Under the pieces are notes generated by a model. The model ran no database searches and was not told where the DNA came from. It saw nothing but the letters and a program-made list of their open reading frames with translations. A stretch of DNA of 64,000 bases, taken from NCBI GenBank assembly GCA_026389455.1, contig JAPLHV010000020.1, positions 16,447 through 80,446 of the forward strand, read 5' to 3'. This stretch comes from Coprothermobacterota bacterium (GTDB lineage: Bacteria; Caldisericota; JANLFM01). The position numbers and the translations under genes were made by a program. This document shows positions 10,700-64,000 of the stretch, one piece after another. How positions within the stretch are numbered: position 1 is the first letter of the stretch; each line of letters starts with the position of its first letter.

Positions 10700-11611
10700 A
10701 TGAGCCGAGCCAATCGCCAAGCCAACAATCTAGTGAAGCGTTGCGGGGACGAAGACCGGCAACTATTGGCATGCATCGAAAGGTTAATTGGAGACGATCC
10801 GGTAATCTGCTTGGAAGATGTCCAAGTTAAGGTCCGTGAGGGACGAGTGCGTTTGACTGGGCTAGTGGAAACCGTTTCTTGGAAGGACCGGCTGGAAGGG
10901 CTGGTCAGTGGGTTGGAGGGAGTTCGTTCGCTGGAAAACGACGTGCGTGTGGAAAAAAAAGTACGCTTCAGCGATCGTCAATTGCAAGCGCTGATCCAAG
11001 AGAAACTCGCTGACGGGGCACTCACCCACAGCGATATCGGCGTCGATTTCCAAGAGGGCGCCCTGACTCTTTCTGGACGGGTGGACACGCTCCAACAGAA
11101 GATGGAATTGGATAGTATGGCGGGCAGCTTGCCAGGAGTCGAGCGAATAGTGAACCGAGTTCGAATCGGTTACGAATCCCCCCCCGACGATCAAACACTG
11201 AAGAATAAAATTCTGTTGGCGATCTCCGAGTTGGGTCATTCGGAGGTTGAAGACCTTAAGGTGCGGGTGGTTCGCGGTGTAGTTTCTTTGAAAGGGCAGG
11301 TGCAGCGCCAGACGGATAAAAAACCTTTGCTCGAAAAAGTGGCAGGCGTAAAGGGAGTTAAGGAGATCGATGACACGATCACCTTCGATCACCAGGAGAG
11401 TAGCCGGGAGGGCTTGCTGCGACAGATCGAGGTTGCCCTCCATGAGGACCGCCGCTTGGAGGGCAGCAGCATCCGCTTTCAGTTGGCGGGCGGAACCCTT
11501 TTTCTGGAAGGAATGGTTCCTGCGCGAGCTTACTTCTTGGTGATCGAAGAGATTCTGGGTCGCTTTCCGGAAGTGCATCGGGTTGTCAACGAACTCCACA
11601 TCCGCCATTAA
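10700..11611 (+). CDS. BON domain repeat protein
   Basis: Repeated BON-type signature, for example VQVKVREGRVRLTGLVETVSWKDRLEGLVSGLEGVRSLENDVRV. Start set at the internal ATG (MSRANRQ) after the upstream stop. Confidence 0.75.
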   Translation: MSRANRQANNLVKRCGDEDRQLLACIERLIGDDPVICLEDVQVKVREGRVRLTGLVETVSWKDRLEGLVSGLEGVRSLENDVRVEKKVRFSDRQLQALIQEKLADGALTHSDIGVDFQEGALTLSGRVDTLQQKMELDSMAGSLPGVERIVNRVRIGYESPPDDQTLKNKILLAISELGHSEVEDLKVRVVRGVVSLKGQVQRQTDKKPLLEKVAGVKGVKEIDDTITFDHQESSREGLLRQIEVALHEDRRLEGSSIRFQLAGGTLFLEGMVPARAYFLVIEEILGRFPEVHRVVNELHIRH

Positions 11612-11612
11612 A

Positions 11613-11737
11613 GGACTCGCTGCCGCGGGCTGATTACTATGCTGCCGCGGGCTGATTACTATGCTGCCGCGGGCTGATTACTATGCTGCCGCGGGCTGAT
11701 TACTATGCTGCCGCGGGCTGATTACTACGCTGCCGCG
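11613..11737 (+). repeat. Core-family array (CGCGGG variant), 22-bp period, 5 units plus a partial core
   Basis: GGACTC-(GCTGCCGCGGGCTGATTACTAT)x5 (the last unit ends ...TAC), then GCTGCCGCG. It begins 2 nt after the BON gene stop. Confidence 0.92.
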
Positions 11738-11745
11738 CATAGTGA

Positions 11746-11841
11746 GGGGACAGATTGAATCAGTATGGGGACAGATTTCAAATCTGTCCCCATACTGGAA
11801 GAATGTCCCCATACTGAATGAAGAGAGAGCGGAATCTGTCC
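11746..11841. repeat. Composite palindromic module: perfect 33-nt palindrome (11763-11795) nested in further GGACAGATT / AATCTGTCC and CAGTATGGGGA / TCCCCATACTG half-sites
   Basis: GTATGGGGACAGATTT-C-AAATCTGTCCCCATAC. There is an upstream GGGGACAGATTGAATCAGTAT, a downstream direct repeat TGTCCCCATACTG x2 (11786-11798 and 11804-11816), and AATCTGTCC again at 11833-11841. Confidence 0.88.
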
Positions 11842-11889
11842 AAATGCTGCGATTTGGCGAGGGAGAAGGGGGAGTGTTACCATCAATGG

Positions 11890-13197: not shown

Positions 13198-13312
13198 GGA
13201 CACCCTGCCGGGGGCTGTCAAGATGCCGGGGGCTGTCAAGATGCCGGGGGCTGTCAAGATGCCGGGGGCTGTCAAGATGCCGGGGGCTGTCAAGATGCCG
13301 GGGGCTGGTTAC
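13198..13312 (+). repeat. Core-family array, 18-bp period, 5 units plus a terminal core (GCCGGGGGCTGTCAAGAT)
   Basis: GGACACCCT-(GCCGGGGGCTGTCAAGAT)x5-GCCGGGGGCT-GGTTAC, between the purB stop and the conserved argS body. Confidence 0.93.
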
Positions 13313-14956: not shown

Positions 14957-14996
14957 ATAGCCCCCGGCGGCTTGATAGCCCCCGGCAGGGTGCTAT
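14957..14996 (-). repeat. Core-family array, reverse orientation, 18-bp period, 2 units
   Basis: ATAGCCCCCGGCGGCTTG-ATAGCCCCCGGCAGGGTG-CTAT, immediately after the argS stop. Confidence 0.9.
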
Positions 14997-16051: not shown

Positions 16052-16066
16052 GGAAGATCGTCACTC

Positions 16067-17281: not shown

Positions 17282-18426
17282 AGCGTGGCAGTCAGCCCGC
17301 GGCAGCGTGGTATTTAATGGCGGAGCGCCTTTCCTGGCCGGCCGTGGTGAGCGTGGTGGGGACCGGACGAGGTTCCGGGAAGACGACTGTGGCCAACGTC
17401 TTGCTGGAGGCGGGGCTACAGAACAAGAAGAGACTCGGCGTGATCCCGGCAGGAAAAGGGGGGCATGCTACCCCACTGCGTCTGCCCAAGGATACCTTGG
17501 TGGCGCTGGCTAAGAACTGTGAGCTGACACACCACCTGGAGTTGCGCGAGGAGTTGGAGGCCAACACTCCCTGGGGCGAAGTGTTGATCGGGAGGGTTCG
17601 GCAAGCGAGCGAGGCTGTCATCGCCGGCCCGGTTACATTGAACGATACGATTGTCGCTGCGCAGCGCTTGATTGCCGAAGGGGCCGAACTGGTGGTGGTA
17701 GATGGCTCCTTGGGTCGCTTATCGGCGAGCGATTCACACCTTGCCCAGCGCTACATTCTGGCGATGGGCGCCGACCCTGTCGACCGCTGGGCTCGAAAGG
17801 AGCAGTTGGAGCGTTTTCACACCATCACTCTAATGCCCAAGGGCCATTGGGAAATTCCCTCTCCGTCAGACCCTCGAAAACGAGGGCAGCCTGCCTTTTG
17901 GAATAAAGACCGCTGGATTCCGATCCCTGAACTTAACCCGGGACTCCCTGCCGGGGGCTACCAAGCTGCCGCGTCCTATCAAGCTGGACAAGCCCCCGGC
18001 AGGGAGTCCTATCTAGCTGGACAAGCCCCCGGCAGGGAGTCCTATCAAGCTGGACAAGCCCCCGGCAGGGAGTCCTATCAAGCTGGACAAGCCCCCGGCA
18101 GGGAGTCCTATCAAGCTGCCGATCTTGCAACTGCGGAGGCGCTCTACTGGCCCGGCGCTTTCACCGATCGAGCGACTCGTCTGTTAGACCGCTTTCCGTC
18201 TCCCCTGGCTCTGTTGCTGGATCAACCTTGGCATCTTCTCGCCAGCCAGGAGCGCTGGCAAGCGCTCTGGCGGGGAGGATGGTCATTCTTCGCACGGGAG
18301 AAAGCAACCTTAGCCTGGGTAGCTGTTAACCCACGTGCGTTGGATGGGCATTTAGAGAGCCCTGAGAGGTTGCTGGAGGAAGCGCGGATCGCTTTCCAGA
18401 CAGTGGAGTGCCGGCAACTGCAGTGA
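17278..18426 (+). CDS. P-loop NTPase-like protein, possible aminomutase accessory factor; carries an in-frame 33-bp x4 repeat insertion
   Basis: Walker-A-like VGTGRGSGKTT. It lies between kamA and the MutS-like gene. Repeat-encoded (YQAGQAPGRES)x4 at aa 234-277. Confidence 0.45.
   Translation: MKRGSQPAAAWYLMAERLSWPAVVSVVGTGRGSGKTTVANVLLEAGLQNKKRLGVIPAGKGGHATPLRLPKDTLVALAKNCELTHHLELREELEANTPWGEVLIGRVRQASEAVIAGPVTLNDTIVAAQRLIAEGAELVVVDGSLGRLSASDSHLAQRYILAMGADPVDRWARKEQLERFHTITLMPKGHWEIPSPSDPRKRGQPAFWNKDRWIPIPELNPGLPAGGYQAAASYQAGQAPGRESYLAGQAPGRESYQAGQAPGRESYQAGQAPGRESYQAADLATAEALYWPGAFTDRATRLLDRFPSPLALLLDQPWHLLASQERWQALWRGGWSFFAREKATLAWVAVNPRALDGHLESPERLLEEARIAFQTVECRQLQ
17941..18121. repeat. 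Composite: one forward element (17941-17959) facing four reverse 33-bp units (17977-18108) plus a partial
   Basis: GGACTCCCTGCCGGGGGCT ... (TATCAAGCTGGACAAGCCCCCGGCAGGGAGTCC)x4 (unit 2 has TATCTAG) ... TATCAAGCTGCCG. The forward copy is the exact reverse complement of the last 19 nt of each unit. Confidence 0.92.
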
Positions 18427-20093
18427 GCCAGAAGAACACCCTGCCGGGGGCTAGTTACTTTCTTGACCTGGAGACACGAGCTGGCCTGGAATGGGATGAG
18501 TTCCTCGGGTTGGTAGAGACCTATTCCCCCCTCGGCAGGGAGGTCAAAGGGCGGATTCAGCCATACCGGATGGGGCAGGAAAGAGAACTAAGGGCCGAGC
18601 TCCGGCGAACCAAGGCCATGGCTTCCTTTTTACTGAATCACCCCTCCTGGGGGGCTGAACAAGCTGTCTTGCTGCACGGTATTAAAGATATCCGCCGATC
18701 ATTGCGCCAAGCCCGTGAGGGATTTGTACTGACAACAGTGGAGCTGTTCGAATGCAAACGACTGCTCCTGCTCTTTAAAAGATTGCGAAAAGGAATGGAA
18801 CAACCTGGACTTGCATTCCTGGCCTCTCTTCGGCCAAAGGGCTGTCCGGCTCTTCTCCGCCTTCTTTCTTGCGGGGGCCAAAGCCAAGAGACCTTTTCAT
18901 TGGTGGAGGCTTATTCCCCCAACCTTGGACAGATCCGCCATCGCAAGGAGGTGCTGGAGAAGTTGTTGTTGGCAGAACGGGCAGGGGTCAATGAACTGCT
19001 TCGCCAGGACGGACTTCGCCTCGGGCGGGATGAAGAGATCACCGTCCAGCGTGGGAGCCCAGGCGCTGACCGTTGTCAAGAGGTTGACCGTCTCGTTCTC
19101 TATAGCGAGAGTTCGCAAACGATAGTATTTCGCCTTCGGCCCTCCCCCAAGTCGCTAAAATGGAGGGAAGAGTTGGAAACCCTCGCAATCGCCGCAGAGA
19201 GGGAGGAAAAGACGATCCGGGCTAGGCTGGGAAAGGCTATCGGTGAACAGTCTGAGGGCTTGATCGAGGATTTGGAGCGAGTCGGCCGCTTCGACCTGTT
19301 ATTGGCCAAGAGTCAACTTGCCAACAGCTACGGTGGCGCGTTACCCCACCTTCTCAGCGCCTCCTCACCGGTCGTCTTTCGACTGGAAGAAGGACGCCAC
19401 TGGCCGATGAGCATGCGCATGTTGGAGCGGGGCATTCTCTTCCAACCCCTCAGCATCGAGCTTTTAAAAGGAGCTGCTTTGGTCAGTGGATCCAATATGA
19501 GCGGGAAAACAGTCCTTCTTAAGACCATTGGGTTGTCCTGTGCCATGGTCCAGCACGGTTTCCTGGCGCCGGCCCAGGCAATGGAATGGGCGCTGCGTGA
19601 TTTCCTCTTTTTTTCCACTCGGCGGCGCGAGCAGGACGGGCTCTCCGCCTTCGGAGCGGAGGTGACCGGGATCAAGCGGGTGTTGGACCACCACCGAAGG
19701 GCTGGCTTGCTCCTGATCGATGAGCTGGCTCGAGGAACCAATCCCACCGAGGGTTTTGCTATCAATGCCGCTCTCCTTCTGTATATCAATCAGATGCCGG
19801 GAAGTGCACTTTTTACTTCTCACTTCGAGGGCTTGGCTCAAGCGACCGGTGTGATGCACTGGCAGATGGCAGGACTTGGCGAGATTAGCCTTGAGCAGGT
19901 GCAAGCGCTCATGCGAGAGGGCGGGGAGGCTATCCTTTCCAGCCTGATGCAGTATCGCCTGGAGAGAGTCGAGCCCGAACGCCGGGTGCCCCATGATGCC
20001 CTCAAGATCGCCCTCCTATTGGGGCTGGAAGAAGAGGTGATAGAGTTGGCTAGAGGATTCACGGAAAATCTCCAACGCGGAGTTTCCCCTTGA
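18408..20093 (+). CDS. MutS-related ATPase (MutS domain V only), lysine-cluster associated
   Basis: Motifs GSNMSGKTVLLKTIG (Walker A), LLLIDELARGTNPTEG (Walker B) and TSHF. No obvious mismatch-binding N-terminal domain. Confidence 0.78.
   Translation: MPATAVSQKNTLPGASYFLDLETRAGLEWDEFLGLVETYSPLGREVKGRIQPYRMGQERELRAELRRTKAMASFLLNHPSWGAEQAVLLHGIKDIRRSLRQAREGFVLTTVELFECKRLLLLFKRLRKGMEQPGLAFLASLRPKGCPALLRLLSCGGQSQETFSLVEAYSPNLGQIRHRKEVLEKLLLAERAGVNELLRQDGLRLGRDEEITVQRGSPGADRCQEVDRLVLYSESSQTIVFRLRPSPKSLKWREELETLAIAAEREEKTIRARLGKAIGEQSEGLIEDLERVGRFDLLLAKSQLANSYGGALPHLLSASSPVVFRLEEGRHWPMSMRMLERGILFQPLSIELLKGAALVSGSNMSGKTVLLKTIGLSCAMVQHGFLAPAQAMEWALRDFLFFSTRRREQDGLSAFGAEVTGIKRVLDHHRRAGLLLIDELARGTNPTEGFAINAALLLYINQMPGSALFTSHFEGLAQATGVMHWQMAGLGEISLEQVQALMREGGEAILSSLMQYRLERVEPERRVPHDALKIALLLGLEEEVIELARGFTENLQRGVSP
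18433..18458 (+). repeat. Single core-family element
   Basis: AGAACACCCTGCCGGGGGCTAGTTAC, 7 nt after the upstream stop. A degenerate reverse copy, CCCCCCTCGGCAGGGAGGTC, lies at 18526-18545. Confidence 0.85.
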
Positions 20094-20166
20094 GCGAAGT
20101 GAAGGGTTCCTGAGGTGGAACATTGGGGAAAGACCGCGATCTCGCGACTGTGAGGGAAAAACAAGA

Positions 20167-21801
20167 TTGCCAATGAGACTGCCGATTCCCACTGAACAAG
20201 TACGCCATTGCCGGCAACTGGCCGCCTCCATCGCGGGGGGAGTGCAAGATGAGATCAGCCCACTCTCCACCGTCTCGGTTGAGCGTTCTCTCCTGCGTTT
20301 GGTCGGCATCGAGGGCAGCAATCAAGAGAGTGTGCCGTTGGTGAATTGTTTCATCGATCAGCTCACCGGGCAGCGAGTCTTGGAGGACGGTGCGCTCTAT
20401 TGGTTAAGCAACGCCATCTTGGCCACGGGGGAAACGCCCCAAGGCATCGCCGAACGCGTGGGCGCAAGGTCGCTTGACCTTGTGCGGCTGCCTCGCCAAC
20501 CTCGGCGAGCGATTGAAAACCACTGCCGAGGGATCGTTCAGGATGCCTTGGTCACTCTCTTAGGCAAACGGCGCCGGCGGCGCGAGATGGAGGAAAGCTT
20601 AGCCCGAACCACGTCCCCATGGCTGTATGTGATCGTCGCCACCGGAAACATTTACGACGACATCGAACAGGCCAAGGCAGCCGCAGAACAGGGCGCCGAT
20701 GCTGTGGCGGTAATCCGCTCTACAGCTCAGAGCTTGCTGGACTATGTCCCCGAAGGGATTACCACCGAGGGGTTCGGCGGCACTTACGCCACTGGAGCAA
20801 ACTTCCGCTTGATGCGAGGCGCCTTGGACGAGGCTTCCCGTCAATCCAATCGCTATGTCCGCCAGGTCAACTATTGCTCTGGCCTTTGCATGGCCGAAAT
20901 CGCCGCTTTGGGAGTTCTGGAAGGTTTAGACATCCTCGTCAATGACGCTCTCTACGGGATTCTCTTTCGTGACTTGAACATGATTCGCACCATGGTTGAT
21001 CAGCATTTTTCGCGCTACTTGTTGGGCCTTTTCGATACAACCATCGTCACTGGCGAGGACAACCTGATCAAGACCATCGATGCGTTCGAGGAATATCCAA
21101 TCGTGCTTGTCTCCCAGTTTATCAACGAGCAATTGGCCAAGAATGCCGGGATGCGTGAGGAACGGATCGGCCTGGGTCATGCTGCCGAGTTGGACCCTGC
21201 GCTAGAGGACAGTTTTCTCAAGGAGCTGGTTCAAGCGCAATTGGTGCGACAGCTTTTTCCCCGCTCACCGGTCAAATTCATGCCTCCTACCCGTTACAAG
21301 AGCGGGAACATTTTCTTCGCTCACGTCTTGGATACACTTTTCAACTTGGTAGCTGTTTGGACCGATCAGGCGATCGTCCTTTTAGGGATGCCGACCGAAG
21401 CGATTCATACTCCCTATGTGCAAGACCGCTACCTGAGCTTGGAGTCTGCCTTGCACGTTCGTCGCGCGGCCGGCTCGTTGGGGCAGGAAGTGCGACTTAA
21501 ACCAAATGGCCAAGGCGCCGCCCGCGCCTGCTGGCTTCTGGCTAGAACCGAGGAATCTCTTACCCGAATTGCCGAGGAGGGGTTGTGGAACTCCCTGGCC
21601 AGCGGCGCCTTCTCTGCCATCAAACGCGCCAGGAGGGGCGGGAGAGGCTATGATGGCGTCTTCCGCAAAGGGCACTTCTATTTGAACCCCTTCCTCGACC
21701 GCGAGGTGGTGCGGAGAGCCAGAAGAAAGGTGGCGCAGAACACCCTGCCGGGGGCTATCGAGCTGCCGGGGGCTATCGAGCTGCCGGGGGCTGTAGTGTG
21801 A
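20167..21801 (+). CDS. kamD: D-lysine (beta-lysine) 5,6-aminomutase alpha subunit
   Basis: 544-aa ORF immediately upstream of and overlapping the B12-binding beta subunit, of KamD-family size, in the kam cluster. The C-terminal tail NTLPGAIELPGAIELPGAVV is repeat-encoded. Confidence 0.82.
   Translation: MPMRLPIPTEQVRHCRQLAASIAGGVQDEISPLSTVSVERSLLRLVGIEGSNQESVPLVNCFIDQLTGQRVLEDGALYWLSNAILATGETPQGIAERVGARSLDLVRLPRQPRRAIENHCRGIVQDALVTLLGKRRRRREMEESLARTTSPWLYVIVATGNIYDDIEQAKAAAEQGADAVAVIRSTAQSLLDYVPEGITTEGFGGTYATGANFRLMRGALDEASRQSNRYVRQVNYCSGLCMAEIAALGVLEGLDILVNDALYGILFRDLNMIRTMVDQHFSRYLLGLFDTTIVTGEDNLIKTIDAFEEYPIVLVSQFINEQLAKNAGMREERIGLGHAAELDPALEDSFLKELVQAQLVRQLFPRSPVKFMPPTRYKSGNIFFAHVLDTLFNLVAVWTDQAIVLLGMPTEAIHTPYVQDRYLSLESALHVRRAAGSLGQEVRLKPNGQGAARACWLLARTEESLTRIAEEGLWNSLASGAFSAIKRARRGGRGYDGVFRKGHFYLNPFLDREVVRRARRKVAQNTLPGAIELPGAIELPGAVV
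21737..21797 (+). repeat. Core-family array, 18-bp period, 3 cores (CTGCCGGGGGCTATCGAG)
   Basis: AGAACACC-CTGCCGGGGGCTATCGAG-CTGCCGGGGGCTATCGAG-CTGCCGGGGGCT-GTAGTG; it ends at the kamD stop/kamE start. Confidence 0.92.
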
Positions 21802-22541: not shown

Positions 22542-24301
22542 GCAAACTGATCTTTATCACCGGGGGGGTTGTCTCTGGGATCGGCAAGGGGATCCTGGCC
22601 GCTTCCATCGGCGCCCTGATTAAGGGGCGAGGGTATCGGGCGAGCATGATCAAGTGCGACCCGTACCTGAACGTGGACACAGAACACGCTGCCGCGGGCT
22701 TTCTAGCTGCCGCGGGCTTTCTAGCTGCCGCGGGCTTTCTAGCTGCCGCGGGCTTTCTAGCTGCCGCGGGCTTTCTAGCTGCCGCGGGCTTTCTAGCTAG
22801 CTGCCGCGGGCTTTCTAGCTGCCGCCCCTACCAGCATGGAGAAGTTTTCGTGTTGAAAGATGGCGCCGAAACAGACCTCGACTTGAGCCACGATGAGCGT
22901 TTCATCGATGAGGATCTGGACCAGTTGGCCAATGTCGCCTCAGGCCGGATCTACTCGGCTGTGATCGCCAAAGAACGGCGAGGCGAGTATTTGGGAGCCA
23001 CGGTGCAGTTGATTCCGCACGTGACCAACGAGATCATGGATGCCATCAAGGGCGCCCTCGAACATTCCAAAGCGGAAATATTGGTGGTGGAGATCGGCGG
23101 CACGGTGGGCGACATCGAAGGGCTCCCCTTCCTGGAGGCCATCCGCCAACTGCGTCGCAGCTTTCCGCCGGAAGATCTTCTCTACGTCCACACCACCCTC
23201 GTGCCATTCCTGGAAACCACACAAGAGGCAAAGACGAAACCGACCCGGCGCTCTGTCGCCGAGTTGCGCAGTATCGGCATCCAACCGAATGTTGTCGTTT
23301 GTCGATCGCGACGAGCGATTTCCCGTAAGCTGTGGGAGAAAGTGGCTCTCTTCTGCGACGTCGATCAAGAGCAGGTGATCTCTCTACCCGACTTGAACTC
23401 TATTTACCGGGTTCCTCTTTTTTTGCAGCGGGAGGGTTTCTCCGCCATCTTGGACCGTTTCCTCGGCGAAAGGCGTACTGCAGATCTGGCAATGTGGGAA
23501 CGGCTGGAACGTATCCTAGAGAGCCCGCATCCGCAGCTCCGCGTCGGCGTGGTGGGCAATTGCGTAGGGATGCGCGACACTTACATCTCGGTCAACGAAG
23601 CCCTGAAGCATGCTTCAATGGAAGAAAAGTTGGATCTCCAGTTGGTATGGGCGCCCTCAGAGAAGTTGACCTCCGGTCGGGTACGGGAGGGGAAGGACCT
23701 CTCTGGAATACTCGGCGAGCTGGATGGGATTGTAGTGCCGGGCGGTTTCGACCCCAGGGGGGTGGAAGGGAAAATCGCAGCAGTAGAATACGCTCGTTGC
23801 CAAGGTGTCCCGTATTTTGGCCTTTGCCTGGGATTACAGTGCGCGGTTATCGAATTCGCTCGCCACGTCTGCGGCTTAGAGGCGGCTAACAGCACGGAAT
23901 TCGATCCTCTCACCCCCTACCCAGTCATCGACCTTATGGCAAATCAACGCGGCTTGGAGGCCAAGGGCGGCGCCATGCGTCTAGGAGCATACCCGTGCGC
24001 TGTGCAAGAGGGTAGCGAGGCGTGGCGAGCCTTTGGCCAAGATATCGTCTGGGAGCGTCATCGCCACCGTTACGAATTGAACAATGAGTATCTTCACCTC
24101 TTGGAACAAGGAGGGTTGGTTGTCTCCGGACGATACGAAGAACTGGGCTTGGCCGAAATCATTGAACTTCCTGGACATCCATGGTTTCTTGGCACACAGT
24201 TTCACCCAGAGTTGACTTCACGACCAGGAAAACCGAATCCACTGTTTCACCAATTTATCAGAGCTTGCGCGAGGAGAGCTAGTTTTCGATGGAAAAACTG
24301 A
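22538..24301 (+). CDS. pyrG: CTP synthase, divergent, with a 147-nt repeat-derived in-frame insertion
   Basis: N-terminal FITGGVVSGIGKG, VEIGGTVGDIE, GATase GLCLGLQ and HRHRYE. The insertion at 22679-22825 replaces the expected GTMS segment. Confidence 0.85.
   Translation: MSKLIFITGGVVSGIGKGILAASIGALIKGRGYRASMIKCDPYLNVDTEHAAAGFLAAAGFLAAAGFLAAAGFLAAAGFLAAAGFLASCRGLSSCRPYQHGEVFVLKDGAETDLDLSHDERFIDEDLDQLANVASGRIYSAVIAKERRGEYLGATVQLIPHVTNEIMDAIKGALEHSKAEILVVEIGGTVGDIEGLPFLEAIRQLRRSFPPEDLLYVHTTLVPFLETTQEAKTKPTRRSVAELRSIGIQPNVVVCRSRRAISRKLWEKVALFCDVDQEQVISLPDLNSIYRVPLFLQREGFSAILDRFLGERRTADLAMWERLERILESPHPQLRVGVVGNCVGMRDTYISVNEALKHASMEEKLDLQLVWAPSEKLTSGRVREGKDLSGILGELDGIVVPGGFDPRGVEGKIAAVEYARCQGVPYFGLCLGLQCAVIEFARHVCGLEAANSTEFDPLTPYPVIDLMANQRGLEAKGGAMRLGAYPCAVQEGSEAWRAFGQDIVWERHRHRYELNNEYLHLLEQGGLVVSGRYEELGLAEIIELPGHPWFLGTQFHPELTSRPGKPNPLFHQFIRACARRASFRWKN
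22681..22825 (+). repeat. Core-family array (CGCGGG variant), 18-bp period, 7 units plus a 4-nt slip plus a partial core, inside pyrG
   Basis: AGAACAC-(GCTGCCGCGGGCTTTCTA)x6-GCTA-GCTGCCGCGGGCTTTCTA-GCTGCCGC. Confidence 0.93.
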
Positions 24302-30464: not shown

Positions 30465-30469
30465 CTAAG

Positions 30470-31090
30470 ATGGAACGAAGGAATCAGGGTTCTTTGGAAG
30501 TGATCTGTGGCAGCATGTTCTCCGGCAAGAGCGAGGAGTTGATCCGACGTGTCAAGCGGGCTCACATCGCACGGCAAAATGTGATCGTCTTCAAGCCGGC
30601 CATGGACAGTCGTTACAGCCAGGGCAAAGTCGTCTCTCACGACGGTGAAACGACCCAAGCTCTCAACCTGCAACACCCCGAGGAGATCTACGCCCATCTC
30701 CACGGCGATACACAAGTGTTGGCCATCGACGAGGCGCAATTCTTTCCCGACTCGTTGGTTAAGGTTTGCCAGTCACTGGCCGACCGCGGCTTTCGGGTAA
30801 TCGTAGCCGGCCTGGATACGGATTTCCGCGGCTTGCCTTTCGGACCGATCCCTTCTTTGTTGGCCGTTGCCGAGAAAATAGATAAGCTTCAGGCCATCTG
30901 TGTGGTCTGCGGGGAAGTGGCCTCGCGCACCCAACGAGTGATCGACGGCCACCCAGCGTTTTTCGAGGATCCCGTGATTATGATCGGCGCAGCGGAGAAA
31001 TACGAAGCGCGTTGCCGGCATTGCCACCAGGTTCCTCGACGAGACGAAGCGAAGGGCCTGCACGCAGCCAAACTCGGGAAGGAGGACTGA
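30470..31090 (+). CDS. tdk: Thymidine kinase
   Basis: P-loop [11 protein letters not shown] and zinc-binding cysteines CVVCG...CRHCH. Confidence 0.9.
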
Positions 31091-32104
31091 TTGAGCCTGT
31101 CCTCGAGTAAAGAGAATAGCCCGCGGCAGCATGATAGCCCCCGGCAAGCAGGCAGCCCCCGGCAAGTAGACAGCCCCCGGCAGGGAGTTCTGGGGAAAGC
31201 GCCGCAGATCCTGGTGGGTGGGCAAGCCGTGTGGGAAGGGGTAATGATGCGCAGCCCTCAAGGAACAGCCATGGCTGTACGGCAACCAAGCGGAGCGATC
31301 ATTGTACAGAGCTTCTCTTTCCCGTCCTTGGCCGATGCTGCGCCGCTTTTTCGCTGGCCGATTTTGCGCGGTATCGCAGCCCTTTGGGATTCCCTCATTC
31401 TCGGCATCAAAGCGCTTAACCTCTCCCTTGCACTTGGCTCAAAGCCGGAGGAAAAATTGAGCAAAGGACAAGCCGCTTTCTCCTTGGCTTTGGCCTTGGG
31501 GTTGGTTATACTGCTCTTCTTCGTTGCTCCTTTCTTTCTTTCTCGCCTGCTATCTTTCTGGCTTCCCCCCCGCTTGTTAGCCGTAGTGGAAGGATTCCTA
31601 CGGTTAGGCATCTTCTTTGCCTACCTGTGGCTCATCTCTTTAATTCCCGAAGTGAAGCGAGTCCTTTACCAATATCACGGCGCTGAACATAAGGTTGTTC
31701 ACACTTATGAGCATGGAGAGCTTTTGACTGTGGAAAATGCTCGCAAGTTCTCACCTTTGCACCCCCGCTGCAGCACGAGTTTTCTGATGGTGGTGCTGAT
31801 CGTCAGTTTTGTCCTTTTCGTTTTTCTTGATTTCCCCAGCACCTGGTGGCGGTTTGCTTCCCGAATTCTCTTTCTCCCCTTGATCGCTGGTTTTTCTTAC
31901 GAGTTGATCCGCCTCTTCACACTTTACCCACGTTCTTTTTTCACGCGGGTCGTCGTCTATCCGGGCTTAGCCACTCAAAAGTTGACAACGGCGGAGCCTT
32001 CTTCCGCCCAACTGGAAGTGGCCATCGCTGCCCTTCAGGCATCCCTGGGCCTGACCTCGATCGAAACGAAGAGCATGACCTCGAGCGAAACGAAGGAAAA
32101 ATGA
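31091..32104 (+). CDS. DUF1385-family membrane protein (start uncertain; the annotated N-terminus is repeat-encoded)
   Basis: Conserved [14 protein letters not shown] and YHGAEHKV motifs. SPRQ-repeat N-terminus from the array at 31116-31193. Confidence 0.72.
31116..31193 (-). repeat. Core-family array, reverse orientation, 18-bp period, 4 diverged units
   Basis: ATAGCCCGCGGCAGCATG-ATAGCCCCCGGCAAGCAG-GCAGCCCCCGGCAAGTAG-ACAGCCCCCGGCAGGGAGTTCTGG. Confidence 0.9.
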
Positions 32105-41273: not shown

Positions 41274-41387
41274 TAGCCCCCGGCAGCTTGATAGCCCCCG
41301 GCAGCTTGATAGCCCCCGGCAGCTTGATAGCCCCCGGCAGCTTGATAGCCCCCGGCAGCTTGATAGCCCCCGGCAGGGTGTTACTGG
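41274..41387 (-). repeat. Core-family array, reverse orientation, 18-bp period, 5 units plus a terminal element
   Basis: (TAGCCCCCGGCAGCTTGA)x5-TAGCCCCCGGCAGGGTGTTACTGG. Confidence 0.93.
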
Positions 41388-41392
41388 CATGA

Positions 41393-41443
41393 TGGCGGAA
41401 AGAAGACATGCCGCCGCAGGCTGTTTAGATATGCTGCCGCAGG
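41393..41443. repeat. Two degenerate core-family copies (GCAGG variant)
   Basis: AGACATGCCGCCGCAGGCTGTTTAGAT and ATGCTGCCGCAGGGTGTTCTGTC. Confidence 0.75.
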
Positions 41444-41596
41444 GTGTTCTGTCAGCGCTTCAACGTTTCCCTCCACAAGGTTGGGGGGCAAGACAGCAGA
41501 CCTCCGGTCAGTTCGGGCAGCATTCCCGCATGGAAGCGGCCTGGGTGGGGACCAGCCAGACTGCGGTGGAGGAGACCTGCGCCGCATTGCTGTTAC

Positions 41597-58664: not shown

Positions 58665-59669
58665 GTGAGGATCATGCAAGAGCGCTTGTACGCAGTCGTG
58701 TTGGCAGCTGGCATGGGTAAGCGAATGAAATCCGCACTCCCCAAGGTCTTGCACTCCTTACTGGGGCGGCCGATGATTTCCTACGCCTTGGATTCCTTAA
58801 GACCGCTGAACTTGGCGCAGACAGTGATCGTCGTCGGCTATGGTGGGGAACAGGTGCAAGAGCAAATCGGGTCCGGCTACCGTTATGTGTGGCAGGATCA
58901 CCAGCTTGGGACTGGACACGCCTTGCAGCAAGCCAGGGAAGTCTTGAGTGAGGAGACCGGGACATTGCTGGTCTTGCCGGGAGACATCCCTTTATTGCGA
59001 GCCGATCATCTCTCTCGTTTGTTGGAAGTTCACCAGGAATCGAAGTGTTTGGGTTCAGTTCTGACTGCTGATGTGGAGGATCCTTCTCTCCTGGGGCGTG
59101 TTCGTCGCAATGCCGATGGCGCCTTCGACTCGATCATTGAGGAAGCGGATGCCGGCCCCGCCGAGAAGACTATCCATGAGGCGTCCACTTCAGTCTACGC
59201 ATTTTCTCTACCGGCGGTCTTCGACTACCTGGAGCGTCTCTGCCCCGAAAACGCCCAAGGCGAGTATTACCTGAACGATGTGCTGCCGATGATGCGGCAA
59301 GCGGGAAATGTGCAAGTTGTCAGAGTAGATGATATTCCCATCATCGGAGTCAATGATCGAGTGCAGTTAAGTCAATGCCGGCGTATCTTGCATGACCGCA
59401 TATTGCGCCAGTGGATGAGAGCAGGAGTCACCATGGAAGACCCGAGCAGCGTCTCTTTGGACTGGGAAGTGCGCTTGAAGCCGGATACCGTGATCAAGCC
59501 TTTTACTGTTCTGGAAGGCGCCTGCCGTATCGGTCAAGGTTGTGTGCTGGGACCCTTCCTGCATTTAGTTGACGCCGTCATCCCGGACGGGACACGCTGC
59601 CGCGGGCTGTCGTGCTGCCGGGGGCTGTCATCCATGCAAGGCCTGTCCAATCGAGGAGAGGAACGATGA
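58665..59669 (+). CDS. GlmU-like sugar-1-phosphate nucleotidyltransferase with a truncated left-handed beta-helix (acetyltransferase) domain
   Basis: N-terminal VVLAAGMGKRMKSALPKVLH and GTGHAL. Only about 334 aa against roughly 450 for GlmU. The C-terminus (…[14 protein letters not shown]…) is encoded by the repeat at 59590-59633. The position upstream of prs matches glmU synteny. Confidence 0.72.
   Translation: MRIMQERLYAVVLAAGMGKRMKSALPKVLHSLLGRPMISYALDSLRPLNLAQTVIVVGYGGEQVQEQIGSGYRYVWQDHQLGTGHALQQAREVLSEETGTLLVLPGDIPLLRADHLSRLLEVHQESKCLGSVLTADVEDPSLLGRVRRNADGAFDSIIEEADAGPAEKTIHEASTSVYAFSLPAVFDYLERLCPENAQGEYYLNDVLPMMRQAGNVQVVRVDDIPIIGVNDRVQLSQCRRILHDRILRQWMRAGVTMEDPSSVSLDWEVRLKPDTVIKPFTVLEGACRIGQGCVLGPFLHLVDAVIPDGTRCRGLSCCRGLSSMQGLSNRGEER
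59590..59633 (+). repeat. Core-family array, 18-bp period, 2 cores (one CGCGGG, one GGGGG)
   Basis: GGACACG-CTGCCGCGGGCTGTCGTG-CTGCCGGGGGCTGTCATCC. Confidence 0.88.
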
Positions 59670-60661
59670 GCTTGGAAGAGCAGACAGCCCCCGGCAGGGA
59701 GTTTCATCTATTCAGCGGGAATGCCAATCTAGCCCTGGCCCAAGAGGTCGCCGATTTTCTCCATATTCCTCTCGGCGCCATGGAAGCATCGCGCTTCCCG
59801 GACGGCGAGATCCATGTCCGTTGCCAAGAGAGCGTGCGCGGACAGGATGTCTTCCTCCTCCAGCCGACTTGCCCACCCGTCAACGAGAACTTGGTGGAAT
59901 TGCTGGTCATGATCGACTCGCTGAAACGAGCGTCGGCCAGGAGCATCACCGCCATCGTGCCATACTACGGCTACGGTCGCCAGGATCGCAAGACCAAGCC
60001 GCGAGAGCCGATCACTGCTAAATTGGTGGCCGACTTGTTGACGGTGGCCGGAGCCAATCGAGTGGTGGCTGTTGACCTTCATGCCGGCCAGATCCAGGGC
60101 TTCTTCAACATCCCCTTCGACAATCTGACAGCCAGCCTGCTCTTTCAAGACTACTTCCTTAAGAAAAAAGGTCTGCAAGAGGCAGTAGTGGTCTCACCCG
60201 ACATCGGCCGGGTTCCCCGAACCCGCATTCTCTCGGATAAACTGAACTACTCCCTGGCCATCGTTGAGAAGCGTCGCATGGGCCCTGACCGAGTGGAAAC
60301 GATGGGAGTGATCGGGGACGTCAGCGGGAAGGTGGCAGTCCTGGTGGACGACATGATTACCACCGGGAAGACGCTGCTCTCTGCTGCCGACACGATCTAT
60401 AAGGCCGGAGCGCGGCAGATCATCGCTGCTTGCACCCACGCGGTCCTTTGTGGCGACTCGGTGAAAATGCTTGCCGATTCTCCAATTGCCGAATTAGTGG
60501 TGACCAATACTGTTCCCATCCCCCCTGAAAAGATGATCGACAAGATTAAGGTCCTCTCCGTGGCGCCGCTCTTGGGGGAAGGGATCACCCGCATCCGCGA
60601 GAACCGTTCCATCTCAGACCTCTTCAGCTACGGTTCATCCGAACAAATCGCCCTGTATTAG
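59666..60661 (+). CDS. prs: Ribose-phosphate pyrophosphokinase
   Basis: HLFSGNANLALAQEVA, the PRPP-binding VLVDDMITTGKTL, and the RBS GAGGAGAGG. N-terminal codons 8-12 (APGRE) are encoded by a reverse-oriented repeat element. Confidence 0.93.
   Translation: MSLEEQTAPGREFHLFSGNANLALAQEVADFLHIPLGAMEASRFPDGEIHVRCQESVRGQDVFLLQPTCPPVNENLVELLVMIDSLKRASARSITAIVPYYGYGRQDRKTKPREPITAKLVADLLTVAGANRVVAVDLHAGQIQGFFNIPFDNLTASLLFQDYFLKKKGLQEAVVVSPDIGRVPRTRILSDKLNYSLAIVEKRRMGPDRVETMGVIGDVSGKVAVLVDDMITTGKTLLSAADTIYKAGARQIIAACTHAVLCGDSVKMLADSPIAELVVTNTVPIPPEKMIDKIKVLSVAPLLGEGITRIRENRSISDLFSYGSSEQIALY
59684..59705 (-). repeat. Single reverse-oriented element inside the prs 5' end
   Basis: ACAGCCCCCGGCAGGGAGTTTC, inverted relative to 59590-59633. 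Confidence 0.85.
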
Positions 60662-60676
60662 GAAAGGAGAATATTC

Positions 60677-61312
60677 ATGGCAGAAGTCCGATTAGAGGCA
60701 TCCCGAAGGGCTGCCACAACCAAGGGGGAAACACACGGCTTACGGCGGCAGGGATGGATTCCCGCTGTCGTGTATGGCAAAAACATTGAGCCGATAGCCA
60801 TCGCCGTTGATCACAAAGGCTTCGTCAAGGCACTGGAGCGGAGTGGCTCCAACGCCATCTTCAGCTTACTGGTAGAGGGTGAAACCAAACCAGTCGTGAC
60901 GATTGTGAAGGAACTGCAGCGCGAGCCCGTCTACCGAACCATCCAGCACATTGATTTTCATGCCATCTCCCTGGAATTAGTGATCAGCGCCCATGTACCG
61001 CTCCATTTGCGCGGAACTCCTATCGGCGTCAAGGAGGGCGGCATTATGCAAGAGAATCTTCACCAAGTTGAAGTAGAGTGCCTGCCGATGGACATCCCTA
61101 GTTACCTGGCAGTAGATGTCAGCGGGTTGGGCATCGGTGATAGCCTATTCGCCGCAGACTTGGTTCTTCCAGAGAAAGTAAGACTCGTCACCGATGCCGG
61201 CACGGCTGTAGTTACTTTGATTCCACCCGAGAAGGAAGAGGTTGTTGAGACACCCGCTGTCGTGGCGGAAGCTCCTAGCAAATCTGCCGAGAGGACTGCC
61301 AAAGAAGCGTAA
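60677..61312 (+). CDS. rplY: 50S ribosomal protein L25 / general stress protein Ctc
   Basis: GETHGLRRQGWIPAVVYGK...HIDFH, with a C-terminal extension typical of the Ctc form. Confidence 0.9.
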   Translation: MAEVRLEASRRAATTKGETHGLRRQGWIPAVVYGKNIEPIAIAVDHKGFVKALERSGSNAIFSLLVEGETKPVVTIVKELQREPVYRTIQHIDFHAISLELVISAHVPLHLRGTPIGVKEGGIMQENLHQVEVECLPMDIPSYLAVDVSGLGIGDSLFAADLVLPEKVRLVTDAGTAVVTLIPPEKEEVVETPAVVAEAPSKSAERTAKEA

Positions 61313-61319
61313 TCTTGAA

Positions 61320-61437
61320 GGACTCCCTGCCGGGGGCTGTAGTCTCCCTGCCGGGGGCTGTCAAGATGCCGGGGGCTGTCAAGATGCCGGGGGCTGTCAA
61401 GATGCCGGGGGCTGTCAAGATGCCGGGGGCTAGACTG
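61320..61437 (+). repeat. Core-family array: 2 cores 21 bp apart, then 18-bp units (GCCGGGGGCTGTCAAGAT) x3 plus a terminal core
   Basis: GGACTCC-CTGCCGGGGGCTGTAGTCTCC-CTGCCGGGGGCTGTCAAGAT-(GCCGGGGGCTGTCAAGAT)x3-GCCGGGGGCT-AGACTG. The unit is identical to the argS array. Confidence 0.93.
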
Positions 61438-61992
61438 ATCGTCGGTCTGGGCAATCCGGGGACGGAATACCGGTGCAGCCGGCACAACATCGGTTTCCGC
61501 ATCGCCCAAGCCTTTGCTGAGGAACGACGGGTTCTTCCTTGGAGGAAGCGTTTTCATGGAAAGATCGCGGTAGGAGAAGGGTGGTTGCTTCTCCTACCGC
61601 AGACTTTTATGAACCTGTCCGGACTAGCTGTTGCCGGGGCCAGTAGTTTCTATCACATCCAGGCGGAGGAGATCCTGGTGATCCACGATGATGCAGACCT
61701 GCCGCTGGGCGAGATCCGCTTCAAGCATGGAGGCTCCTCCGGAGGTCACCAAGGGGTGGCGTCGATCCTGCAATACGTACGAAAAGCTGAATTTGATCGG
61801 CTTCGCTTCGGCGTAGGTCGAGAAGCTGGGAAAAAAGCTCTAGATTTTATCCTCGAACCTTTCTTGCCGGAGGATGAAGGTTGTCTTCCGGCGCTAATCG
61901 AGCAAGCTCAACGCGGTATCGACTGCTGGCTAGAGGAGGGTATCGCGATGTGCATGAACCGCTTCAACAAGAAGAACCTCCTCGCCCCATGA
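61420..61992 (+). CDS. pth: Peptidyl-tRNA hydrolase; the start codon is supplied by the last repeat unit (alternatives ATG 61366/61384/61402)
   Basis: MPGARLIVGLGNPGTEYRCSRHNIGF matches the canonical Pth N-terminus M-x-LIVGLGNPG..Y..TRHN.GF. Confidence 0.9.
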   Translation: MPGARLIVGLGNPGTEYRCSRHNIGFRIAQAFAEERRVLPWRKRFHGKIAVGEGWLLLLPQTFMNLSGLAVAGASSFYHIQAEEILVIHDDADLPLGEIRFKHGGSSGGHQGVASILQYVRKAEFDRLRFGVGREAGKKALDFILEPFLPEDEGCLPALIEQAQRGIDCWLEEGIAMCMNRFNKKNLLAP

Positions 61993-64000
61993 ATCTCGCC
62001 TCGTTGCTTCTCTCTGAACAAGGTATGCGGAAGCTGATCAGCAGCTTGGAAGCAGGTCATCCTCAGCGTCTAGGTCAGGTGGGGGAAGGTCTTCGGCCAC
62101 TTCTCATTTACGCTATTTATCAGTCGTTGCAGCGCCCTCTGCTGTTGCTCTTTGCAGAAGGAGAACCGATGGAGAGGACAGCATCCTTGCTGGCCGAGTG
62201 GGGCCTTCCAGTGTACCCTTTTCCAGCGCTGAAACCGCACTTTGGCGAGAAAGCTCCTGCTGATTCGACTACTCTTGCAACTCGCCTGAGCACGCTGTGG
62301 GAGCTCCGGGGAGATCGTCTGCCGGTAGTCTGCGCAACCTTGAGATCCTTGCTTCAGCCTTGCCCTTCACCCAGCTATTTCAACCAACAGCGCATGGCAT
62401 TTCGTCTCGGCCAAGAGGTGTGGCGTGAGGACTTCCTGAGTTTCCTCAACGGGGCGGGCTATAGCCGAAGCGCCCGAGTGGAAGCGCTCGGTGAATACAG
62501 CCAGCGAGGCGCCATCGTTGATGTGTTCACGCCAAGCTCACCCCTTCCATTGCGCTTCGAATTCGAAGGAGACGTCTTGGCTTCGATACGACTCTTTGAT
62601 CCCAGTGCGCAAGTTTCCGAAGGGCAGGTTGAGGAAGCGCTGCTGCTCCCCTGGCGGGCTTTCTCGATTCATGAGGAAGGGTTGGCGGCAATCCAAGCCG
62701 GCTTGTCTCGCCAGCGCAAGAGGCTGCGCGAGCGCCTTCGGACCAGCGAGGCTCGGTTTCTAGAGGAGACGGTCGGGTCTGACTTGAGATTGTTGGAAAA
62801 GGGAATGCACTTTCTTGGGGAAGAATATTATCACCCTTTCTTCTCTCCCGTAGCTAGTCTTTTATCTCATTTGCTCCCTTCTACCTTGATTCTATCGGAA
62901 GAGGAAGGGAAACTGCAGCAAGCCTTCGAGGAGACGCGGCGCGCCAGTGAAATGTCCTACCGCAGCGCTCTTGATCAAGGCGAGGCAGTCCCGTATGGCA
63001 CGACAGCCCCCGGCAGCGCGACAGCCCGCGGCAGCACGACAGCCCCCGGCAGCACGACAGCCCCCGGCAGCACGACAGCCCCCGGCAGGGTGTCCTGGGA
63101 GATTGGCGCCGGCCAGACCGCTGAGTTTCCCTTGCTTCCCGATTGGTGGTCGCTTCAGGCTGTTTTTCACTCTTTCCCGTCCCTCTCCTTTTCTTCCTTC
63201 GGGGGAGATGTCGATTTCCCTTACCAAGCCTTGCCCTCATACCAGGGGCAACTCTCCGATTTTCTTCCAGTGATGAAGGGATGGTTAAAGGAAGGGCGGC
63301 GGGTGATCCTTGCCGGCAGAGGGATAGCCCGCTACCAGGATCTCTTTCGCAGCCAGGATCTTCCGCTTGAAGAGATGGATTGGGCTCAAGATCTGCAACC
63401 AGGAGCGGCTTATCTGTGGAAAACGGCGCCTGCGCCTGGTTTCACACTTCCCTCCTTGGAATTAACCCTCGTCTCCGAGATGGAGTTGTTCGGTTGGCGG
63501 CGAAAACCAAAAAGCGAGCGCCGTTACCGCGAAGCGAAGATTCTTAGCTCTTGGGAAGAGCTGAAACCAGGGGATCTGGTCGTTCATGAGACATACGGGA
63601 TCGGGCGTTACCAGGGACTGGCCACTCTGGAGATCGATGGTCTTTCTCGAGACTACATCCAGATCTCCTACGCTGACCAGGACAAACTTTATGTTCCCAG
63701 TGAACAGATTTATCTGGTGGCCAAGTACCTAGGAGACAACGTCAAGCTGCCTTCTTTGTCCCGCCTGCATTCCACCGATTGGGCGCGCACCAAACGCAAA
63801 GCACGACGGGCAGTGGCTGAAATTGCACATCAACTGCTGGAGCTATATGCCGCCCGAGAGGTCGCCGCTCCCGAGCCCTATCCCGAGGTTCAGCCTTGGG
63901 AAGAAGATCTCTCCATGACTTTCGCCTTTCCCGAGACAGCAGACCAAGAGAGAGCCATTCAGGATGTCATGAGGGATCTGCAACGGCAAAAACCGATGGA
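61989..64000 (+). CDS. mfd: Transcription-repair coupling factor Mfd (3'-partial, runs off the window) with an in-frame repeat insertion
   Basis: Open frame from the ATG at 61989, which overlaps the pth stop. Hand translation gives GEYSQRGAIVDVFTP, RFEFEGDVLASIRLFD, and later GDLVVHETYGIGRYQGL and YADQDKLYVPSEQ. (TTAPGS)x5 is encoded at 63000-63098. Confidence 0.9.
   Translation, partial: MNLASLLLSEQGMRKLISSLEAGHPQRLGQVGEGLRPLLIYAIYQSLQRPLLLLFAEGEPMERTASLLAEWGLPVYPFPALKPHFGEKAPADSTTLATRLSTLWELRGDRLPVVCATLRSLLQPCPSPSYFNQQRMAFRLGQEVWREDFLSFLNGAGYSRSARVEALGEYSQRGAIVDVFTPSSPLPLRFEFEGDVLASIRLFDPSAQVSEGQVEEALLLPWRAFSIHEEGLAAIQAGLSRQRKRLRERLRTSEARFLEETVGSDLRLLEKGMHFLGEEYYHPFFSPVASLLSHLLPSTLILSEEEGKLQQAFEETRRASEMSYRSALDQGEAVPYGTTAPGSATARGSTTAPGSTTAPGSTTAPGRVSWEIGAGQTAEFPLLPDWWSLQAVFHSFPSLSFSSFGGDVDFPYQALPSYQGQLSDFLPVMKGWLKEGRRVILAGRGIARYQDLFRSQDLPLEEMDWAQDLQPGAAYLWKTAPAPGFTLPSLELTLVSEMELFGWRRKPKSERRYREAKILSSWEELKPGDLVVHETYGIGRYQGLATLEIDGLSRDYIQISYADQDKLYVPSEQIYLVAKYLGDNVKLPSLSRLHSTDWARTKRKARRAVAEIAHQLLELYAAREVAAPEPYPEVQPWEEDLSMTFAFPETADQERAIQDVMRDLQRQKPM
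63000..63098 (-). repeat. Core-family array, reverse orientation, 18-bp period, 5 cores, inside mfd
   Basis: ACGACAGCCCCCGGCAGC-GCGACAGCCCGCGGCAGC-(ACGACAGCCCCCGGCAGC)x2-ACGACAGCCCCCGGCAGGGTGTCCTGG. Confidence 0.92.

Follow-up and report, generated by a model that had tools for sequence, protein, structure and literature searches.

A short repeat array at the start of pth in a Coprothermobacterota bacterium, probably a recent in-frame insertion behind a retained TTG start codon

Introduction

The stretch of DNA analysed here, 64,000 nucleotides of contig JAPLHV010000020.1 from a Coprothermobacterota bacterium (assembly GCA_026389455.1; termed the window), carries an array of short repeats at the junction of rplY, which encodes a ribosomal protein of the L25/Ctc type, and pth, the gene for peptidyl-tRNA hydrolase. 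Probably the array is a recent and strain-variable in-frame insertion of 114 bp, contributed by a family of short, non-palindromic repeats specific to this uncultivated lineage; the old TTG start codon of pth was kept, and the repeat adds further start codons. A first-pass annotation of this DNA had seen the same repeat unit at argS and at pth and had taken it for the initiation module of both genes. The observation is confirmed and the interpretation is partly supported.

The case is of interest because a repeat of 18–21 nt spreads in this bacterial lineage through essential housekeeping genes without destroying them. In addition, the element lies at the very start of translation in pth and argS, with a plausible ribosome-binding site and an ATG of its own, and these genes offer a natural case for the question of whether selfish repeats can rewire translation initiation and free a gene from coupling to the one before it.

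The array at the rplY–pth junction

The junction is ordered TAA-TC-TTGAA-GGACTCCC-TGCCGGGGGCT-GTAGTCTCCC-TGCCGGGGGCT-4x(GTCAAGA-TGCCGGGGGCT)-AG-ACTGATCGTC, where the insert opens with a head, continues with one unit of 21 nt and four of 18 nt, and closes with AG (Table 1). Six copies of the core GCCGGGGGCT are found on the plus strand at 61329, 61350, 61368, 61386, 61404 and 61422, the first two 21 bp apart. The 18-mer GCCGGGGGCTGTCAAGAT is present in exact form at 61350, 61368, 61386 and 61404 and is followed by a terminal core; Tandem Repeats Finder reports the interval 61349–61431 with a period of 18, 4.6 copies and 100% matches. This is the arrangement described earlier, two cores 21 bp apart and then three units plus a terminal core, with the second core opening the first full unit.

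The array runs in frame into pth and has no internal stop codon. It displays four in-frame ATG codons, at 61366, 61384, 61402 and 61420, and GGGGG tracts (61353–61357, 61371–61375, 61389–61393 and 61407–61411) that each lie 8 nt before one of them. From the TTG the open reading frame (ORF) 61315–61992 reads LKDSLPGAVVSLPGAVKMPGAVKMPGAVKMPGAVKMPGARLIVGLGNPG..., and from the last ATG (61420) it reads MPGARLIVGLGNPGTEY..SRHNIGF, the conserved body of the protein beginning with LIVGLGNPG at 61437. The first-pass annotation had these ATG codons and the end of the rplY stop (61312) right, and also the repeat origin of the last start codon and of codons 2–4 (PGA). RplY of the window is identical to MCX5975535.1, from a metagenome-assembled genome (MAG) of a Coprothermobacterota bacterium.

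Comparison with relatives

Relatives at several distances were compared. L119 (CAYXFH010000145.1), L120 (JBAXTH010000004.1) and L124 (JGI 3300048652) are all 94–98% identical to the window, L138 is about 92–94% and L018 ~86–88% identical, L007 is a sister species at 85% nucleotide identity, and L008 is a relative at 62% identity. The closest Pth homologues (91%, 62% and ~50% identity) all have 187 aa and an N-terminus reading LKLIVGLGNPG or MRLIVGLGNPG; the latter is found in P0004 and P0009, where the orthologous start codon is ATG. The Pfam domain Pept_tRNA_hydro is found in the relatives' Pth.

In the DNA of L007 and L008 the rplY stop (TAR) is followed by NN and then by TTG AAA CTG ATC GTC. 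When these sequences are aligned with the window, the flanks TTGAA/ACTGATC are identical and 114 extra bases are present only in the window. Because the flanks match with nothing between them in the relatives, the array can be placed as an insertion inside codon 2 of pth. Its length equals 38 codons, and the TTG (61315) therefore stays in frame; as the position of this TTG is conserved in the relatives, pth has an independent ancestral start. The earlier claim that no independent Shine–Dalgarno (SD) sequence or ATG exists at pth does not hold, given a position-conserved TTG that remains in frame through all 114 bp.

A shorter insert occupies exactly the same site in L119, L120 and L124. It is 39 bp long and has the form GGACTCCC-core-GTCAAGA-core-AG; it offers a single ATG, contains two cores and lacks the 21-nt unit. 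Accordingly, the inserts at pth form a series of 0 bp (L007), 39 bp (L119, L120 and L124) and 114 bp (the window). Gene callers treat the 39-bp version differently: in L119 and L120 two pipelines call a protein of 200 aa from the TTG, and in L124 the JGI pipeline calls one of 190 aa from the ATG. For annotation, it is ambiguous where many proteins of these MAGs begin and how long they are. The comparison shows that the element inserted within codon 2 of pth, right after the ancestral TTG, at first as 39 bp with two cores, and that it grew to six cores in the window strain.

At least six independent Logan assemblies are 100% identical to the window up to 61352, inside the second core, and then break; they corroborate the extra 21-nt unit as far as that position. 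These matches confirm that the longer pth allele is real in independent samples. An artefact of assembly or consensus in a repeat-rich MAG is extremely improbable as an explanation. Short-read contigs do break at arrays, which matters for assembly in general, and assemblers have difficulty with the copy number of a perfect 18-nt array, but at least six independent samples agree exactly over the first 33 nt of the insert, the 39-bp version was assembled through in three independent assemblies, and the window is contiguous across ~17 arrays. An exact look-up of five forms of Pth, two of ArgS and the window PyrG found none of them in the protein collection searched.

The repeat family

Members of the family have a 21-nt head, formed by a leader of ~10 nt (cAGRACWCSC) and an 11-nt core (TGCCGSGGGCT), and further units of 18 nt, each with a 7-nt spacer (RTCWWGY) and a core. 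Every array of the window opens with the leader G[GA]AC[AT]C[CG]C and the core TGCCG[GC]GGGCT, and arrays of the relatives do likewise. The 10-mer core is found 40 times in the 64 kb, in both orientations, with 0.29 copies expected; this amounts to ~17 loci and about one core per 1.6 kb.

The family is also present in related MAGs and lake metagenomes, namely ELA551, binchicken_co18_491, LacPavin MAG_58_15 and JGI Ga0194044/Ga0247841-2. The first three are among the matches listed for the pattern GCCGSGGGCT-N8-GCCGSGGGCT, for which GC-rich genomes gave many chance matches. No member was seen in L008. Viral contigs gave no two-core match, and their two solo 17-mers are at or below a rough chance estimate; there is no sign of a phage origin. 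Candidate members from other phyla, in L099 (Lentisphaeria), L032 (Monoglobus) and L080, were rejected as E/P/A-rich protein repeats or as isolated pairs of cores with no head. A search with a composite repeat peptide returned one weak match, the query probably being of too low complexity. In the literature searched the motif is not described, and the published occurrences of the core 10-mer that were examined are unrelated to these repeats.

In folding, heads and units show no advantage over shuffled sequence (z between -1.1 and +0.5). A hairpin model was considered, as covariation of C[C/G]C in the leader with G[G/C]G in the core suggested a CCC-UGCC-GGG stem. It was rejected because there are only two haplotypes and because folding energies equal those of shuffles.

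Perhaps the arrays act as cis-elements, for example as sites for a DNA- or RNA-binding protein, uptake-like signals or G-rich tracts that form structures, the rplY–pth copy regulating transcription or mRNA stability of pth. The density of about one core per 1.6 kb in both orientations resembles that of uptake sequences, different species of the lineage share the core and some spacer positions, and G5 recurs every 18 nt. This role is nevertheless improbable, given that sites are gained and lost between strains at 92–97% identity and that they lie in arbitrary housekeeping genes in either orientation. Nor are tandem 18-nt arrays a feature of known uptake sequences. At pth the array has no promoter-like or terminator-like site and folds no better than shuffles, and Rfam models match only four tRNAs in the window and nothing at the array.

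Translation of pth

Anti-SD duplex energies were computed in silico with a generic anti-SD sequence, there being no 16S rRNA in the window, and are -8.6 kcal/mol for the repeat ATGs and -2.5 for the TTG; rplY has -9.0, the gene at 15014 has -9.4, and the 5th percentile of the window is -9.3 kcal/mol. Each repeat ATG has in silico the arrangement of a ribosome-binding site (RBS), a purine tract 5–10 nt before an in-frame start. Folding of the rplY–pth region does not depart from that of shuffled sequence (z = -0.23). Initiation inside the array, plausible from the sequence, is made likely by the GGGGG tracts, which at 8 nt before an ATG pair like real RBSs, and by the lack of unusual RNA structure. 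The coupling context of the TTG is unchanged, and thus the 225-aa Pth can be made.

Coupling of termination to reinitiation works best at very short spacing (PMC12548453). The ancestral arrangement, with a stop codon, 2 nt and then a weak TTG that has no SD sequence, fits such coupling, and this context is kept in the window. What differs in the window is the addition of SD-plus-ATG units 51–105 nt downstream, and these could make pth partly independent of its coupling to rplY. Ribosomes that end at rplY would still start at the TTG and yield a 225-aa Pth, while the GGGGG and ATG of the GTCAAGA units would allow direct initiation within the array and yield Pth forms of 190–208 aa, maybe by the stronger route. 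In an AlphaFold2 model of the 225-aa protein, residues 1–39 are coil with a confidence score (pLDDT) of 58–75, and the fold begins at residue 40 with pLDDT > 90; the 38-residue N-terminal tail is predicted to be flexible or disordered. Predicted N-terminal peptides are MKDSLPGAVVSLPGAVK for a TTG start and MPGAVK or MPGAR for an ATG start.

The spacer segment TCAAGAT (61360–61367) is the exact reverse complement of ATCTTGA (61312–61320), which spans the ancestral TTG, and the predicted mRNA structure pairs the two. The argS spacer is the same but has no such complement. The predicted pairing could mask the TTG, or it could be due to chance.

A stronger role for the repeat was proposed by the first-pass annotation, and in its full form it is doubtful: the repeat ATG, with GGGGG as SD sequence, would be effectively the sole start of both pth and argS, and the sequence GTCAAGA(TG) would have been selected or copied at 5' ends as a portable module. 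The 18-mer does recur exactly at argS, in five copies (13207–13296) at a distance of 48.1 kb, and nowhere else in the window, with a chance expectation of 0.00, and its SD-like pairing at the ideal 8-nt spacing is stronger than that of the TTG. A census of 34 spacers from ~33 arrays shows C at spacer position 7 in 21 cases, T in 10 and A in three. It is the A that creates the ATG, and it occurs in both 5' arrays of the window. A third N-terminal multi-unit array, in a mazG-like gene of L119, has in-frame ATGs by way of another spacer, GTCATGC. All three N-terminal multi-unit arrays (argS, pth and the mazG-like gene of L119) thus provide in-frame ATGs, and none of the C-terminal or internal ones does (kamD, pyrG, mfd and a glmU-like gene). 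Among the four recent multi-core inserts of the window strain, which have four different spacers, only that of argS has the spacer of pth. The JGI gene caller also chooses the ATG in L124.

Several findings speak against this proposal. The window keeps the ancestral TTG in frame together with its 2-nt coupling context, and two other pipelines call the TTG. Solo members near the N-terminus that have no ATG, GTG or TTG (at 18437 in a gene with a MutS_V domain, and at 59686 in prs) can only be translated by ribosomes that began at the old start. Nor is the family confined to 5' ends; it is also found in pyrG, mfd, thyX, FTCD and kamD and in intergenic regions. There are only three N-terminal arrays, two of which may have one source. 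The unit is identical at both genes and is a plausible RBS module, but the arrays are not limited to translation-related genes. Selection of a spacer variant at 5' ends has some support from the rarity of A at position 7 and from the in-frame ATGs of the N-terminal arrays, but the cases are too few and maybe not independent.

The first-pass annotation had also suggested recent copying of the whole array between argS and pth. In the strict sense this is not supported, as the heads differ (GGACACCC and GGACTCCC) and pth has the extra 21-nt unit. The insert at pth is moreover the older of the two, being present as 39 bp in relatives at 94–98% identity, and the argS array is missing in the relative at about 92–94%. 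At argS the array adds a net 108 bp in frame, and the empty site in L018 and L138 reads TAA A GTG TAT TAC TTG.

It is unlikely that the array is only a passenger with respect to expression, with Pth made solely from the TTG coupled to rplY and with ATGs that are silent under translating ribosomes. The TTG context is the same as in relatives that have no array, arrays are translated elsewhere, and the tail of Pth is predicted to be disordered and harmless. However, four consecutive ATGs have G5 at optimal spacing with the strength of real RBSs, no unusual RNA structure hides them, and internal initiation at sites with an SD sequence and an ATG is generally expected in bacteria. The comparison with relatives, which the first-pass annotation had called for, revealed an in-frame insertion behind a retained TTG; the repeat itself does offer good start sites.

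Turnover, reading frame and placement

Six sites that are filled in the window are empty in L138, L018 or both; these are argS, 14957, 17285, 18437, kamD and pyrG. In the syntenic 22 kb of L138 there are two solo cores, compared with ~10 loci and ~35 cores in the window (2963–25296). Such a gap in element load at ~92% identity suggests a recent burst in the strain of the window. In population studies the arrays can serve as very fast strain markers.

Spacers are identical inside each array, and periods differ among arrays (18, 19, 21, 22, 23 and 33 nt). The 33-nt array at 17991–18110 repeats the whole head together with 12 flanking bases. Identical spacers and periods peculiar to each array fit duplication between adjacent identical cores, and not repeated insertion. 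Growth would have proceeded by slipped-strand or unequal pairing of such cores.

The nine indels measured (114, 39, 108, 36, 33, 21, 57, 132 and 36 bp) are all multiples of three, and arrays with periods of 19, 22 and 23 nt are confined to non-coding DNA. Translation through the arrays of pyrG, mfd and thyX is certain because domains flank them. FTCD (FTCD_C) also carries an array within its reading frame. With respect to location, nine of 17 loci lie no more than 20 nt from a supported gene's stop codon, the random mean being 1.6 (P = 5e-5), and inserts within codons 1–3 are found in pth, argS, the MutS_V gene, the ORF at 17278 and the mazG-like gene of L119. The family is frame-neutral (21, 18 and 39 nt), with members that survive mostly a few codons from gene starts and stops and in loops or linkers of proteins.

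Copies in reverse orientation within ORFs are read in the same frame (..APGR..) in seven of seven independent cases, among them mfd 62998–63097, prs 59686–59706, 17991–18110, L037 and L136. Forward copies favour the frame that yields (Q/K)(N/D)(T/S)LPGA. As all frames of the core are free of stop codons, avoidance of stops fails to explain this bias. The motif TTAC was considered as a possible target. At argS and 14957 it lies on the 3' side of the insertion point, whether the site is filled or empty; pth, kamD and pyrG lack it, and the motif is not consistent.

Some points weigh against a recent mobile insertion with a retained TTG. No transposase, RAYT or reverse transcriptase is encoded among the ~50 ORFs of the window, otherwise ordinary housekeeping genes, and the insertion sites compared have neither a target duplication nor a consistent target motif. 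Lengths in multiples of three are largely intrinsic to the element, and intergenic inserts have them too; in-frame status alone is therefore no proof that the TTG is used. The TTG is weak and has no SD sequence, so that with very inefficient reinitiation the ATGs could in practice be the only productive starts, as the first-pass annotation had it. Finally, the array in pyrG displaces a conserved loop, AGTMS, and possibly some insertions are not harmless.

A more radical proposal is that of an active, undescribed micro-element, a 21-nt head or a 39-nt two-core unit with neither palindrome nor target duplication, that dedicated machinery copies preferentially into the first or last codons of genes. 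Some of its variants, as portable SD-plus-ATG cassettes, would take over initiation of essential genes such as pth and argS, and its bursts would separate strains at 92–97% identity. This is speculative and rather improbable. If true, a dedicated insertion mechanism would represent a new kind of mobile DNA.

Comparison with known repeat elements

The family's closest analogues are mycobacterial interspersed repetitive units (MIRUs) and Rickettsia palindromic elements (RPEs). MIRU units are 40–100 bp in length. MIRUs are apparently mobile short repeats that form variable-number tandem arrays and are found at start codons within operons, where downstream expression is preserved (PMC12548453). 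The family described here likewise inserts at start codons and gene junctions. It differs in that a MIRU carries its own small ORF, coupled to the next gene at -4 nt, and no such ORF is present here. Units of the family are 18–21 nt, are fused in frame behind the start codon and are also found deep inside genes; they belong to another lineage and have no sequence similarity to MIRUs.

RPEs have the appearance of selfish elements, are inserted in frame in unrelated housekeeping genes and are translated as an extra peptide that seems compatible with the fold (PMC10969869). Members of the present family are similarly in frame in pyrG, mfd, thyX, FTCD, kamD, prs, argS and pth. RPEs, however, are ~100–150 bp, palindromic and not tandemly amplified. 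The family has the form of 21 nt plus n x 18 nt, shows no significant hairpin and varies in copy number between strains.

The repetitive extragenic palindromic (REP) sequences and REPINs associated with RAYT proteins resemble the family in being very short (20–40 nt), GC-rich, abundant, lineage-specific and present in both orientations. REPs, however, lie outside genes and form imperfect palindromes that begin with a conserved GTAG at the 5' end. The family has neither a palindrome nor GTAG, and many of its copies are intragenic. CRISPR arrays differ as well, with repeats of 24–48 nt and unique spacers; in this family an 11-nt core alternates with 7-nt spacers that are the same throughout an array.

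Variable-number tandem repeats (VNTRs) and contingency loci share with the arrays a change of tandem copy number between strains in the first codons of genes. Unlike contingency loci, the arrays have a unit length that is a multiple of three, and therefore frame switching or phase variation does not result. One shared core and head marks a dispersed family, as distinct from the locally born repeats of VNTRs. DNA uptake sequences are 10–12-mers over-represented genome-wide in both orientations and conserved at orthologous sites. The core of the family is over-represented (40 against 0.29) and present in both orientations; its sites are insertions that close relatives lack at the orthologous positions, and they form tandem arrays.

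Other members of the family and neighbouring genes

Coordinates of the features are collected in Table 1.

Table 1. Features of the rplY–pth junction and other members of the repeat family; positions are those of the window
Feature	Position	Strand	Remarks
rplY (L25/Ctc) stop codon TAA	61310..61312	+	ORF 60677–61312; Pfam Ribosomal_L25p and TL5_C
Ancestral pth start codon TTG	61315..61317	+	2 nt past the rplY stop; in frame with array and pth
pth ORF	61315..61992	+	225 aa from TTG; 208, 202, 196 and 190 aa from the four ATGs
pth insertion, 114 bp = 38 codons	61320..61433	+	Within codon 2; absent in L007 and L008; 39 bp in L119, L120 and L124
Head of the pth element	61320..61338	+	Leader GGACTCCC (61320–61327) and core 1 TGCCGGGGGCT (61328–61338)
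Extra 21-nt unit at pth	61339..61359	+	GTAGTCTCCC and core 2; missing in the 39-bp version (L119, L120, L124)
Four 18-nt units at pth	61360..61431	+	Each with spacer GTCAAGA and core TGCCGGGGGCT
Intergenic member, 22-nt period, 5 cores	11611..11737	+	Starts at the stop codon of a BON-domain gene
argS array	13199..13308	+	Directly after the GTG start (13196); head GACACCC and core, then five GTCAAGA and core units
Two-core member, 36 bp	14957..14994	-	Past the argS stop, before the next gene's SD; no insert in L018 or L138
Single C-type core, 33 bp	17285..17317	-	Follows codon 2 (TTG AA/) in the gene that lies downstream of kamA; no insert in L018 or L138
Composite member in ORF 17278–18426	17939..18118	both	One + head, then four - heads; 33-nt period
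Solo 21-nt head (AAGAACACCC and core)	18437..18457	+	After codon 3 of a MutS_V-domain gene; translation SQKNTLPGASYF; no insert in L018 or L138
Member in the last codons of kamD	21737..21793	+	..QNTLPGAIELPGAIELPGAVV*; +57 bp
pyrG member	22679..22825	+	147 nt in place of 15 nt encoding AGTMS; site empty in L138
infB/rbfA intergenic members	41275..41448	-	18-nt-period array with 6 cores and a degenerate pair, 23-nt period
Two members at the glmU-like/prs junction	59588..59706	both	Two-core + member in the glmU-like C-terminus (59588–59626); solo - member in prs codons 5–11 (59686–59706)
mfd member	62998..63097	-	Read TTAPGS...; between UvrB_inter and CarD_TRCF_RID domains

The pyrG array lies between DPYLNVD and PYQHGEVF, and one 22-nt unit, with an extra GCTA, restores the frame. 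The loop that is kept in L138 is swapped for 49 repeat-encoded residues. Either this loop may tolerate drastic change or the pyrG allele of the window may be impaired. The mfd array is 36 bp longer than in L119 and is absent in L008. Prs has 331 aa in the window and 325 aa in relatives.

In the gene downstream of kamA (17285–17330), the codons after the 33-bp insert are ATG GCG, as against CTG CCG in L138 and L018, which makes an ATG directly past the insert. The mazG-like gene of L119 follows mfd, past the end of the window. Its five-core array (L119 positions 11872–11970), with spacer GTCATGC, is inserted after codon 2 (ATG ATC/CAG GAC ACC CTG...), and the gene reads M I QDTLPGA(VMLPGA)x4, with an in-frame ATG in each unit.

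Within the Thy1 domain of thyX (29574–29624) an in-frame 18-nt array has three copies of a divergent core, CAGAACAGCC TGCGGCAGCA TGTCTACT. Its leader resembles that of the family, and the array may be a diverged subfamily. Between thyX and prfA, ~1.6 kb (30465–32100) contain no Pfam-supported gene, and a four-core array with three spacers is located there (31118–31192). The long thyX and prfA ORFs seem over-extended.

The region 15014–25107 contains a lysine-fermentation gene set (kdd-like, kamA, kamDE, BKACE and thiolase genes), and its gene content fits an anaerobic amino-acid fermenter. A separate repeat, GGGGACAGATT, with inverted copies GGGGACAGATTTCAAATCTGTCCCC, is present at 11746–11830 and 5207–5217. 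It adjoins the 22-nt array in the spacer between the BON-domain gene and purB, and L037 has a similar sequence; the repeat may form a terminator hairpin or represent a second family of small repeats.

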